In this document: in pieces, positions 44,526-55,151 of the stretch
Numbering within the stretch: the stretch's first letter is position 1
Layout: every line of letters starts with the position of its first letter
Source of the DNA: Deltaproteobacteria bacterium
GTDB taxonomy: Bacteria > Myxococcota_A > Polyangia > Fen-1088
DNA length: 64,000 bases
Assembly (NCBI GenBank): GCA_033763315.1
Contig: JANRKS010000032.1
Coordinates: 288,001-352,000, forward strand
Direction: 5' to 3'
Translations under genes and position numbers: made by a program
The notes under the pieces: model-generated
What the model saw: the letters and a program-made list of their open reading frames with translations, nothing else
Database searches by the model: none
What the model was told of the DNA's origin: nothing

Positions 44526-47500
44526 GTGCAGCCAGCACACACAAAGCCACGGCGTTTCGGTGGCCGCTTTGAGACCGAATATGAGGTTGGTCACGGCGGC
44601 ATGGGGGCGGTGTACCGTGCGCGCGACTTGCAGACGGGCCAGCCGGCGGCGGTAAAGGTGTTGTTCGAGCGCGAAGGGCCAAACGCGGAGCGCTTCGTGC
44701 AAGAGGCGGTGATGTTGGCGGAGCTTTCGCATCCGGCGATCGTGCGCTACCTGGGCCACGGCGTGGCGCCCTCGGGCGAGCATTACCTGGCGATGGAATG
44801 GCTTGAAGGCCGCACGCTCGAGGATTACCTGACGGGCGGCGCTGTGCCGGTGTTGCAAGCGGTGCAATTGACGGCGCGTGTGGTGGATGCGTTGGCGGTG
44901 GCACACCGGCGCGGCGTGGTTCACCGTGACATCAAGCCGGCAAACCTGCTGCTGCCGGAATCGCGCATCTCGCACGCGAAGCTGCTGGATTTCGGCATCG
45001 CACGGCGTTTGTTCGACACGCGCCGGATCACACGTACGGGCGCCACGCTGGGCACGCCGATGTACATGTCGCCCGAGCAAGCGCGCGGCTTGACCGACGT
45101 GGACGCGCGTTCGGACGTGTTCTCGATGGGCTGCGTGTTGTTCGAGTGTTTGGCGGGGCAGCCGCCTTTCACGGGTGAAACACCGTTGGCCGTGTTGGCG
45201 AAGATCTGCTTGGAAGTGGCGCCGGACGTGCGTCGTTTCCGCCCTGAAGTGTCACCGGCGTTGGCGGCGCTTGTACGGGGCATGCTGGAAAAAGACCCGG
45301 AAAAACGCCCGGGCGACACGGCCGAACTGGCACGCATGTTGGCGGTGATGGCCGATGAATTGCGTACGGGTGTGCCCGCCAACGATGGCCACGCGGCGGA
45401 TTACAAACCACTGCCGATCGTCACACCGGGCGAACAGCGTTTGTTCTCGGTTGTGTTGGTGCAGCTGCCACGCAAGGGACCAAAGCAAAGCCCTGCCAGC
45501 CGCAGCTCTTCAAGCTTGCTGGTGGCCACCACAAACATTACAGGCGTTGTGAATCCGCCCACGCCTGTGTCGCTCAAAGCGATTCGCGGCTTGTGGCGCA
45601 AGGGCGTAAACACACCGCTGCCGCCGACGCCCGGCGCCGCCACGCCGGGCGATATGCCGGCGGTGGAGAGCGAGCAACTGCCGCCGGATCTCTACGACGA
45701 TCAAGTGATGGCGCGCGTGCGCAAATCGGCTTTGCCGTTCGGCGTGCAAGTGGATCGCTTTTACAACGGCTCATTGGCGCTCACGAATGCGAACGGCGGC
45801 AGCAGCGCGGAGCAAACCTTCGAGATGGCCCGCTGCGCGCTTGAAATGCGGCGTTTGCTTCCTATGGCGGCGTTTGCTGTGGCCACGGGCCGCGCGGATG
45901 GCGACGCGCCGATGCCAGTGGGCAAGGTGCTGGAGCGCGCGGGCCGCTTGCTGGCGGGCGCACCACCCAGCGTGATTCGCCTCGACGATCTTTCACATGA
46001 ACTGCTGGCGAGCCGCTTTGAAACATCGGCGGTGCCGGGCGCGGATCAAGCGGCACGGTTGCTGTTTGAAAAAGGTTTGCGCGAGCCGCCGCGCACGTTG
46101 TTCGGCAAACCCACGCCCTGCATCGGCCGCGATCGTGAGCTTTCGAGCCTGCAAAGCCTGTTTGCCGAAGTGCTTGACGACAGTGTCGCACGCGCCGTAA
46201 TCGTCACAGCACCGGCAGGTGGCGGTAAATCGCGCGTTCGTCACGAATTGATGGAACGCCTTTACTCACGCGGCACCAACTTCTCGCTGCTGGCGGGCCG
46301 TGGTGAATCGATGCGTGCGGGCAGCGCGTGGTCGTTGCTGGGTGGCGCGCTTCGTGCGGCGGCCGACGTCAGTGGCTATGAAACGCTAGACGTGCAGCGC
46401 CTGCGTTTTGGTGCGTACTTCGGGCGTCGCTTCACAAAGCCAGAAGATCGCCAACGCGTGGTTTCGTTCTTGGGCGAGATCGCGAACATCCGTTTTCCAG
46501 ACGACGACTTTCCGATGTTGCGTTCCACGCGCCAAGATCCGCGCGCGATGGCAGATCAAACGCGCGCGGCGTGGCTCGATTGGGTGGAAGCGGAGCTGGA
46601 TCACGCACCGGTGGTGCTGGTGTTTGAGGATCTGCACTGGGGTGACGCGGCCACGTTTGGTTTGGTGGACGCGGCCTTGCGCCTTTACGCAGAGAAGCGC
46701 TTGCTTGTGATGGGCTTTGCGCGCCCCACACTCGACGAGAAATACCCGGGCCTGTGGAATGGGCGCAACGTGGAGCGTTTGGGTTTGCCACCGCTTTCCG
46801 CGAAAAACGCGCGGCGTTTGGTGCAAGCGGCGCTGCCCACGGCGAGCGATGAACAAGCCGATGCGCTGTGCGCGCGTGCCGATGGTAACCCCTTCTTTCT
46901 TGAAGAACTCTTGCGCGCTTCGGTTGAGCGCGGCAACGACGTGGCGCAAGCGTCGCCTGCCTCGATCCTCAGCATCATTCAAGGCCGCTTCGATAGCTTA
47001 GGCGATGGCGTAAAGCGTGTGCTGCGCGCGGCCAGCGTGTTCGGCATGTCCTTCCGCCGCAGCGGCGTGGGCACGCTGATCGGCGAGTCGAACCTCAAAG
47101 ACGTTGAAGAGTATCTGGATGTGCTAGTGGCGCGCGAAATTGTGTACCGCCGCGCCTCGGGTTCGGGGCGTGAGTACATGTTCCGGCACGCGTTGGTGCG
47201 CGAGGCCGCGTACGACACGCTGACGGATCGCGATCGCAAGGTGGGGCACTTACTTGCGGGTGAATTCTTAGAGCGCCTCGGCGCTGAGAACCCAGGCGAG
47301 TTGGCAGAGCACTTCGAATGCGCCGAGGAGATGAAGCGCGCGGGCCACTGGCATTACGTGGCGGGGCAACGTGCGCTGGCGTCGGTGGAGTTAGAGAATG
47401 CGATCAAGCACTGCGAACGCGCGGTGAAGTGCGGCGTGGAGGGGGAAGAGCTGGGGTTGGTGAAGTTGTTGGAGGCGCGGGTGCAGATCTGGAGGGCCAA

Positions 47501-54100: not shown

Positions 54101-55151
54101 ACAGAGTTTCTGAGACTTGCGTGGTCACAGGATGTTGATCGACTTCGCTACTCGCAGGTGAGATCAGTAGCAGTGCGTGCACGCGCCGTTCACCCGAGCC
54201 AATGCTTGACGGTTGCTGACGCGGCGGGGCCTCAGGGCGTGCAAGCAAGGTTGGTAGTACCCGTTCGAGGTTTTGCACCACAAGTTTTGCGTTGGGTGTA
54301 CGGCGTTCGCGATCTTTGAGCAGCAAGCCCGCGAGCACGTCCTGCAGGCCTGGATCAACGTCAGGGCACAGTTGAGCCAATGGCACATGATCGCTAAAAC
54401 AAATCTTTGCCAGCGTTGCCAACGCAGAATCGCCCACGAACAAAGGCTTTGCGAGCAAACACTCAAGCAGCACGCAGCCCAACGAAAACAGGTCGGCACG
54501 CCCATCGAGATCAGCTTCACCGCGCGCCTGTTCGGGCGCCATATACATCGGCGTGCCCACCCAGTGGCCCGTACCTGTGACACGCAGAAAATCAACGTGA
54601 CGGGCGATCCCGAAATCAAGCACCGTGACTTGATTGAGATCGTCATCCACCACCATGAGGTTTTCCGGCTTGATGTCGCGGTGAATGATGCCGTTGGCGT
54701 GCGCCATGGCCAAAGCCGAAGCCACGCGCATACCCACGCGCGCCGCATCCGCTTGTGACAGGGGCCCCTGCCGCAAGCGTTGCTTCAAGGTTTGCCCGCG
54801 CAGCAGAGCTGTGGCCACATAGCGCTCACCCGCTGCACTGACGCCATGATCGATGTAGGCCACGATCGCAGGGTGCGAGAGCGTGGCCAAAAGCGCGCCC
54901 TCGCGCGAGAACCGCTCCGCCAGGCCGGTGCCAGCGAAGATCTTCAGCGCCACATCGTGGCCCGTGGCGGTGTCCTCGGCCACCACAACGTGCCCCGACG
55001 AACCGCTGCCTAAGGCACCGCGCACACGAAAGCGGTCGGCGAATAGAGTGCCCGCCGCCAGCAGCCGCCCCAACGGCGCATGCCGCACGTCGGCCGGCTC
55101 TGTGCCTGCTGTGCCAGTCGTTCCGCGCTCGGGTATGACGAGCCGTGCCAC
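51195..55151 (-). CDS. Cytoplasmic Ser/Thr kinase + degenerate cyclase-like + STAND NTPase + TPR-like repeats
   Basis: [69 protein letters not shown]; helical tail ending YLHNIPENR. Confidence 0.92.

Follow-up and report, generated by a model that had tools for sequence, protein, structure and literature searches.

A 24-aa peptide gene, flanked by two large kinase-STAND genes (kinA and kinB) and accompanied by a gene for an FHA-domain enhancer-binding protein (EBP), lies in a 64,000-nt stretch of contig JANRKS010000032.1 from a bacterium of the class Polyangia (assembly GCA_033763315.1, contig positions 288,001 to 352,000); this whole stretch is referred to here as the window. We found that the peptide is a member of a family of cationic repeat peptides that rises above background in one Polyangia family only, and that the window holds one of three predicted paralogous kinase-STAND-TPR/peptide/FHA-EBP modules in its genome. 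Sigma54 promoters, TPR-bearing Ser/Thr kinases and C39-peptidase exporters with HlyD are all replicated beside the peptide genes, and the best fit to this combination is a regulated, exported peptide of the double-glycine type. We put the probability of the full reading, in which a double-glycine-type peptide is controlled by the kinase and the FHA-EBP, exported and possibly autoinducing, at about one in two.

A lineage-restricted family of repeat peptides

Using a degenerate DNA pattern for AGG-[L/F]-x2-3-NH(N/S)R, with the reversed pattern as a control, we fetched 28 loci, in which a unit of the form (V/I)KAGG-[L/F]-x2-3-NH(N/S)R occurs in 1–11 tandem copies after a short Lys/Thr-rich start. 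A six-frame scan of the window's genome (7.63 Mb) revealed two motif genes in addition to that of the window, one on contig C21 (locus L001) with six 21-residue units and one on contig C35 (locus L002) with six 18-residue units. The pattern was present in 7/41 related genomes and, in a class-wide sample, in 23/401 genomes, comprising 20/71 genomes of the window's family, the window's genome itself and 2/329 genomes of other families; the reversed pattern returned three single matches in the same sample. In a phylum sample, 1/300 other genomes carried the pattern, against five control matches. Overall, 21/72 genomes of a single Polyangia family, a group of soil-type myxobacteria, carry the motif; elsewhere its frequency is that of the background.

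By all sequence indications, the peptide genes are coding. Synonymous codons differ at every conserved residue across 82 units (Ala is written with four codons, Gly with three or four and Ser as both AGC and TCC), and the unit periods correspond to 18–25 whole codons. Together with the conserved start codon, ribosome-binding site (RBS) and stop codon, this codon evidence ruled out the possibility that the arrays are tandem DNA repeats serving as enhancer sites. A profile search (5.8 billion proteins, 8000 candidates scored) returned at least 814 database homologues at E ≤ 0.001. Among the 120 matches listed, the named ones are termed 'hypothetical protein', bar two with unrelated automatic JGI names, one has a Pfam domain, and the few named by NCBI come from 'Polyangia bacterium' metagenome-assembled genomes. 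Neither the 24-aa peptide nor its 115- and 134-aa paralogues scored above cut-off against any Pfam or NCBIfam model.

The peptides are strongly cationic, very basic and vary from gene to gene, and no signal peptide was found in the family. A Gly-Gly site follows the N-terminal part, as in double-glycine peptides, where cleavage takes place at GG (or GA/GS) after 13–30 residues; it reads RAGG in the window peptide and KAGG in 81 family units. The two or three residues between GG-[L/F] and NH display 40 variants in these 81 units, with units inside one gene mostly alike, and a Ser or Thr, mostly Ser, is positioned three residues ahead of KAGG in 70/81 units. Database homologues P0029, P0042 and P0053 carry NHNQ or NHNE for NHNR, placing the invariant core nearer to KAG-x4-6-NHN; one of the three has a non-repeat C-terminal stretch of ~130 residues. 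Several genomes possess two peptide genes with different units in one locus (L037, 9625–10779; L074, 8667–11471; L075, 8156–12102), and arrays are often frame-broken or N-masked, suggesting that the repeats are hard to assemble.

Promoters, kinases and exporters beside the peptide genes

An exact TGGCAC-N5-YTGC sequence is positioned 32–58 nt before the ATG in 10/31 upstream regions, compared with 0.3 % of random 150-nt windows drawn from the same loci, and a sigma54 site with at most one mismatch was detected in 15/31 (random windows, 1.2 %). Two frame-broken array continuations (L071, 9576–10274; L074, 11247–11471) were left out of the 31 regions, while in L075 (11632–12102) and L077 the chosen start codons are probably too far upstream, such that sites there may be hidden. 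The sigma54 site of L001 has one mismatch and that of L002 has three; both loci share TTGGCAYG-N4-KTGAAGTAG at 67–76 nt upstream.

A Hanks kinase is encoded within 3 kb of the peptide gene in 18/28 loci. Two more loci have a TPR-only protein and no kinase within this distance, and the other eight, several of which are at contig ends, have neither. In the window's genome (40 contigs, with 115 kinase-domain loci and 11 kinase-STAND genes), ~10 % of the sequence is no more than 3 kb away from a kinase domain. All three peptide genes of the window's genome are flanked by a kinase-STAND-TPR gene and an FHA-EBP gene, and the C21 and C35 loci share the order EBP (divergent), peptide, kinase (convergent). 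Co-occurrence of the three components had been suggested as a check in the initial annotation of this DNA, starting from the kinases; in our variant, which starts from the peptide-motif genes, it was found in full in the window's genome (3/3) and for the kinases across the family, but FHA-EBPs are scarce at the other loci, as discussed below.

In genera other than that of the window, the kinases next to peptide genes measure 840–1010 aa, and most of them have a single predicted membrane helix directly behind the kinase domain, followed by TPR_12/TPR_10 repeats; with the helix in this position and the TPR beyond it, they look like receptor kinases whose TPR is outside the cytoplasm. Twelve of the 13 tested neighbour kinases from other genera have a common best match in the window's genome, and hence form one orthologous group. 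The match in question, an open frame of 516 aa, contains a membrane helix and no TPR match, and no peptide gene is located near it. In L035 (10240–12942) and L038 (10223–13021), receptor kinases divergent from the peptide genes start with a zf-HC2 (anti-sigma-type) zinc finger, and the peptide genes have no sigma54 promoter, which hints at wiring through an extracytoplasmic function (ECF) sigma factor in some loci.

C39-peptidase ATP-binding cassette (ABC) transporters are encoded within 10 kb of the peptide gene in 6/28 loci, or in eight if related ABC genes that lack a detected C39 domain are counted as well (five genera). The exporters are 47–49 % identical to each other, with the peptidase Gln, Cys, His and Asp invariant and HlyD adjacent. 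Two C39 matches were obtained in the window's genome: a full-length exporter (open frame of 957 aa) with HlyD, 5–6.5 kb from the C21 peptide gene, and an open frame of 200 aa on contig C32, which also holds the window, at a distance of ~200 kb from it. The window peptide gene itself has no C39-ABC exporter in the surrounding 20 kb that were examined.

Organization of the window module

The features of the window are listed in Table 1. The two convergent kinase-STAND paralogues of ~1,330 aa described in the initial annotation were confirmed, with KinA and KinB sharing 37 % identity across 998 aa and scoring above the Pfam cut-offs for both Pkinase (161 and 129 bits) and AAA_16 (48.7 and 47 bits; cut-off 32.6). 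Hanks kinases are recognized by a VAVK lysine, an HRDxKPxN catalytic loop, DFG and APE, and in a six-sequence alignment K120, H209-R210-D211, K213, N216, D231-F232-G233 and P257-E258 are invariant, as are the STAND Walker A (G564, G566, K567, S568) and Walker B (E704, D705) residues. The TPR-like tail attributed to both proteins was recovered in weaker form: Pfam TPR families match both tails, yet under the cut-offs (KinA, TPR_12, 26 bits against 30.1; KinB, TPR_19, 21.4 bits against 25). The tail of the L002 kinase clears Pfam (TPR_12, 30.9 bits), and a PDB sequence search with the STAND-tail part returned a single marginal match among solved structures, the TPR protein Pins.

The middle domain, previously called a degenerate cyclase-like domain, gave only weak profile matches. 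A six-sequence profile reaches class III adenylate cyclases at E values of 0.047–0.2 only, the sole Pfam match is GGDEF_2 (E value 0.008–0.017) with no cyclase family matched, and the alignment position that we take to be the cyclase 'GD' motif reads GS or GT in most copies. The best NCBIfam match of both kinases is TIGR03903, 'TOMM system kinase/cyclase fusion protein' (298.9 and 300.8 bits against a cut-off of 705.75), which amounts to resemblance rather than family membership. No transmembrane segment was predicted in KinA or the other STAND kinases of the window's genus.

Table 1. Predicted genes and sites of the kinase-STAND/peptide/FHA-EBP module and its surroundings, in window coordinates
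Feature	Position	Strand	Remarks
Third kinase-AAA_16 paralogue, without TPR-like tail	39958–42477	+	839 aa; Pkinase 157.6 bits, AAA_16 50.5 bits
KinA: Hanks Ser/Thr kinase, putative cyclase-like middle, STAND (AAA_16) NTPase, TPR-like tail	44526–48572	+	1348 aa
Upstream block GTCAA-N4-TTGAC-TTGCC, candidate regulator site	48695–48713	+	GACTTGC invariant in three single-unit genes (window, L040, L041)
Shine-Dalgarno AGGAG	48783–48787	+	5 nt before ATG; conserved in two orthologues
24-aa peptide gene, one-unit KAGG...NHNR family member	48793–48867	+	Open reading frame, motif
Intrinsic terminator	48884–48917	+	10-pair stem, 6 G-C pairs, T-run
Uma2-family (PF05685) gene, split over two frames	49026–49704	-	Pieces 49408–49704 and 49026–49472, matching profile positions 2–58 and 55–161
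EBP: FHA, AAA+ (sigma54-interaction) and C-terminal HTH activator	49772–51190	+	Pfam/NCBIfam domains
KinB: KinA paralogue, identical architecture	51195–55151	-	1318 aa; 4-nt gap to EBP, convergent with EBP

The FHA-AAA+-HTH activator was likewise upheld, as FHA (PF00498, 49.5 bits against 20.7) and Sigma54_activat (PF00158, 168 bits against 20.2) score well above their cut-offs and an AAA lid is present. Its Walker A motif is GETGVGK, and it displays the FHA signature (Gly-Arg, Ser-x-x-His, Asn-Gly) as GR...SGQH...STNG. The window EBP shares 48 % identity with its counterparts at the C21 and C35 loci. The GAFTGA loop of sigma54 activators contacts sigma54, and we found it in 18/52 sigma54-type AAA+ loci of the window's genome. 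A further 6/52 have GAHS(Q/T/A)A in this position, namely those of the three peptide loci and C1:142390–143124, C2:432514–433284 and C5:67572–68213. Five of these six have a blast-detectable FHA domain, and each of the five is accompanied, with or without a peptide gene, by a Hanks kinase gene no more than ~5 kb away; three of the five FHA-EBPs of this GAHS subfamily adjoin the genome's three peptide genes. No peptide-like open reading frames (ORFs) were found beside the two other FHA-EBPs of the genome, beside the closest receptor-kinase homologues or beside the FHA-EBPs of the sister genomes.

The window peptide consists of a 13-aa N-terminal part ending in RAGG (residues 10–13) and an 11-aa C-terminal part. 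Two sister-genome orthologues (L040, L041) keep the ORF, the RBS and a hairpin with T-run of differing stem sequence, and the motif recurs in two more genes of the genome and in the database family, which together argue that the 24-aa ORF is a real gene rather than a chance ORF. The initial annotation had presented it as a stand-alone transcription unit. The ORF, RBS and 3′ terminator agree with this; however, no promoter was identified upstream of the peptide gene and no terminator was found between kinA and the peptide gene, such that independence is shown at the 3′ end only. The conserved upstream block does not correspond to a sigma54 -24/-12 site, and it was not scored as a sigma70 promoter. 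The peptide gene is co-directional with kinA, and is therefore inverted relative to the C21 and C35 loci, with the order kinase-peptide-EBP kept; the window copy looks like a rearranged one-unit variant that is possibly re-wired. KinA orthologues (52–59 % identity) adjoin single-unit peptide genes in two sister genomes, and one of these kinA genes appears to be frame-broken, judging from its coordinates.

The Uma2 gene, which the initial annotation did not include, separates the peptide gene from the EBP gene. Its split reading frame identifies it as either a putative pseudogene or an apparent assembly error, and it is probably an insertion unrelated to the module.

A candidate peptide circuit

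In the circuit that we propose, the peptide genes are translated and many of them have sigma54 promoters, as their sequences show. From what is typical of the protein families, the kinase would undergo autophosphorylation or phosphorylate a partner, in either case on Thr; this phospho-Thr mark would be read by the FHA domain of the EBP, and the EBP would open the sigma54 promoter of the peptide gene. The neighbouring genes suggest that the peptide would be cut after Gly-Gly and exported by the C39-peptidase ABC transporter with HlyD. More speculatively, the TPR domain might sense the peptide, whether exported or retained, or else a related cue, and an autoinduction loop would thereby be closed. 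We regard this circuit as likely at the level of the family, a grade that does not extend to the window EBP driving the window peptide.

The chain from kinase through FHA-EBP and sigma54 to peptide was originally proposed for the window itself. It is reasonable for the family, given the frequency of sigma54 promoters and neighbouring kinases, but several observations weigh against it, above all in the window. The best sigma54-like site of the window peptide gene has three mismatches, which is background, and a scan of the whole window at two mismatches or fewer returned 122 matches where 111 were expected, i.e. no excess. The L1 loop of the EBP, in place of GAFTGA, reads GAHSQA in the window, L001 and L002 and GAHSTA in L034 and L037. 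An FHA-EBP is found within 10 kb in only 5/28 loci. Neither an EBP nor kinB accompanies the kinA-peptide pairs of the two sister genomes; the best EBP homologues there (≤51 % identity) are located elsewhere, with no peptide genes in the 4.1–4.5 kb examined at each. At L039 (G001:C5:268800–288799), the peptide gene (9883–10149) has an ECF-sigma/CarboxypepD_reg fusion gene on one side and trpA on the other, and neither a kinase nor an EBP is encoded up to 10 kb away. Export by a double-glycine route meets objections of its own, since some homologues have KAGT, KAGA or KAAG for KAGG, and the N-terminal parts are basic and Thr/Lys-rich with an alternating pattern (L-K-V-K-S-A-I-K), whereas double-glycine leaders are usually amphipathic and acidic and follow LSxxELxxIxGG, a pattern absent from the present peptides. 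Finally, the STAND kinases of the window's genus, having no membrane segment, would be blind to an exported peptide unless it were re-imported.

Two of these loci merit further description. The L039 gene is orthologous to the C21 peptide gene and identical to it in promoter and 5′ region, as if the peptide gene had moved as a cassette. Among the EBP-homologue loci of the sister genomes, 2/6 have a kinase directly upstream.

The initial annotation had compared the peptide to a cytoplasmic, RRNPP-like ligand. The C39 exporters with HlyD and the single-pass receptor kinases instead favour an exported double-glycine peptide. Nothing points to the infection alarm or self-recognition loop resembling nucleotide-binding leucine-rich repeat (NLR) proteins that was also put forward.

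The kinase tail diverges far faster than the remainder of the protein (22–30 % identity, against 38–67 % for the kinase and STAND domains); for a KinA orthologue, the corresponding values are 29.5 % for the tail, 67 % for the kinase and 59 % for the STAND domain. A database search with one kinase tail returned only two matches. As the tail is the fastest-evolving part and the residues between GG-[L/F] and NH are so variable, the few cases available suggest that peptide and TPR sensor may diversify together. A broader scenario, which we hold as tentative and possible rather than probable, is that one Polyangia family possesses an unrecognized form of peptide communication, in which sigma54-driven precursors with as many as 11 tandem signal units would be cleaved at Gly-Gly by a C39-ABC exporter, released and sensed by TPR kinases (receptor kinases or, in the window's genus, cytoplasmic NLR-like STAND kinases), FHA-EBPs would provide feedback to the precursor promoter, and the variable residues and tail would constitute pherotypes for kin or strain recognition. 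A complex prediction for the L002 kinase (residues 930–1366) and the L002 peptide, run with alignments and without controls, scored 0.01 against a mark of 0.32 and counts neither way.

Alternative explanations

The exporters with HlyD near family members might also serve an antimicrobial cargo resembling a microcin or class II bacteriocin, with the kinases and EBP regulating its output in response to another cue and no peptide-sensing loop. The strongly cationic character of the peptides, their differences between genes and the cytoplasmic location of the STAND kinases in the window's genus are all compatible with this explanation. We nevertheless consider it unlikely, as no immunity-like small membrane protein recurs among the neighbour clusters, arrays of identical units are more characteristic of signal precursors, and the consistent partner of the peptides is the TPR domain that a receptor kinase carries beyond its membrane helix.

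Adjacency in the window may also mean little, the region being rich in kinases and rearranged; the peptide would then be tied at most to kinA, with which it is perhaps co-transcribed, and EBP-kinB would form a separate module. The sister genomes, which keep kinA and the peptide gene without EBP or kinB, the missing sigma54 promoter and the Uma2 insertion that parts peptide from EBP are in keeping with such an arrangement, and all five FHA-EBPs have a kinase within ~5 kb irrespective of a peptide gene. However, the order kinase-peptide-EBP is the same as in the two other loci of the genome, and three of the five FHA-EBPs adjoin the three peptide genes, and we consider this reading of the window rather improbable.

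We give little weight to an intracellular role, in which the repeat peptide would be a multi-site substrate, pseudo-substrate or scaffold of the adjoining kinase, docked on its TPR and not an exported signal. The Ser/Thr residue conserved ahead of KAGG, the cytoplasmic STAND kinases and the lack of signal peptides would suit this role, but most kinases of other genera place the TPR across the membrane from the kinase domain, exporters are nearby, and the conserved residue is mostly Ser, whereas FHA domains read pThr.

Lastly, a beta-solenoid or amyloid-like fibre of 18–25-residue units, serving as secreted structural material or partnering the STAND protein in amyloid signalling of the NLR type (cf. 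HET-s/NWD2 and bacterial BASS motifs), is very unlikely: the ~21-residue unit with its Gly-Gly turn, Asn-His-Asn and alternating hydrophobic pattern, the STAND protein adjoining in the window's genus and the three short strands per unit drawn by AlphaFold2 for the 134-aa L001 peptide (59-row alignment) would be consistent with it, but the mean predicted local distance difference test score of that model is 48 with no residue at or above 70, which gives no usable fold, every unit has several uncompensated positive charges, no motif copy was noticed in the kinase N-terminal parts inspected, and most partners are receptor kinases, not STAND proteins.

Relationship to known systems

The regulated and exported double-glycine-type peptide that we favour has its closest functional parallel in the double-glycine circuits of Firmicutes (ComC-ComAB-ComDE, Blp and plantaricin/sakacin), which likewise combine a Gly-Gly peptide, a nearby C39 ABC exporter and an adjoining membrane sensor kinase with an activator, and by analogy a similar autoinduction logic is plausible. 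The components differ, however: a Hanks kinase with TPR, or a cytoplasmic STAND kinase, takes the place of the histidine kinase, and an FHA-EBP at sigma54 promoters that of the LytTR response regulator. The present peptides, known from sequence alone, moreover have up to 11 tandem units and a basic leader and belong to a Gram-negative Polyangia host.

FHA-domain EBPs and Ser/Thr kinase networks of Myxococcus xanthus were reportedly described by Jelsbak, Givskov and Kaiser in 2005. As there, FHA is fused to a sigma54-type AAA+ domain in a kinase-rich phylum, and kinase genes lie beside the FHA-EBPs (5/5 here). The L1 loop of the present proteins, GAHS(Q/T)A, sets them apart, and to our knowledge no peptide gene or STAND kinase belongs to the M. 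xanthus picture. MalT, the LAL regulators, AfsR and PknK of M. tuberculosis are STAND regulators with TPR-like sensors, which sense small metabolites or have no assigned ligand. KinA and KinB resemble them in having an AAA_16 P-loop NTPase followed by a TPR-like sensor, and PknK also in its N-terminal Hanks kinase; we know of none of these that pairs with an FHA-EBP or a peptide gene.

Members of TIGR03903 lie beside ribosomal peptide precursor genes. The match of the window kinases spans the kinase, middle and NTPase parts, at a score far below the cut-off, and neither a cyclodehydratase nor a thiazole/oxazole-modified microcin (TOMM) precursor was seen near them. The RRNPP systems share with the present loci a presumed TPR peptide sensor and a peptide gene adjoining the receptor gene. 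The RRNPP receptors, however, are cytoplasmic proteins of Firmicutes, of the TPR-HTH or phosphatase kind, to which a re-imported peptide binds, whereas most TPRs here are located beyond the membrane helix of the partner kinase; no RRNPP family was among the Pfam/NCBIfam matches of the window proteins, and no sequence relationship was detected.

The initial annotation knew of no characterized system of this composition, and we found no description of one in full-text searches of the literature. The peptide family, its tandem architecture, its links to sigma54, TPR receptor kinases and C39 exporters, and the GAHSxA EBPs were likewise not found in Pfam, NCBIfam or these full-text searches. Kinase-STAND fusions are already known, as are myxobacterial FHA-EBPs encoded next to Ser/Thr kinases; the peptide family with its lineage-restricted spread and the GAHSxA FHA-EBP subfamily appear to be new. 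Peptide cell-cell signalling is textbook knowledge in Gram-positives and rare in Gram-negatives, and the nature of several intercellular signals of the social myxobacteria is still debated. If the proposed circuit is correct, a compact module of multi-copy precursor, sigma54 promoter, TPR receptor kinase, FHA-EBP and C39 exporter would represent a testable signal candidate, and the peptides would give the abundant, as yet unassigned TPR-bearing and STAND-type Hanks kinases of Myxococcota their first proposed class of ligands. A more cautious reading still adds a protein family of at least 814 members and an FHA-EBP subfamily characterized by the non-canonical loop GAHSxA; the promoter specificity of this subfamily merits study in its own right.

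Additional observations

[quoted passage not shown] A DUF5916/CBM9 protein of ~850 aa is encoded within 10 kb of the peptide gene in 7/28 loci (L034, L037, L067, L073, L074, L075 and L077). Finally, the third kinase-AAA_16 paralogue of the window, likewise absent from the initial annotation, is related to KinA in its kinase (45 % identity) and STAND (32 %) domains (blastp). An AAA_14/DUF4143 ATPase gene (42580–43737) follows directly after it, and the tail of this paralogue may have been lost through insertion.

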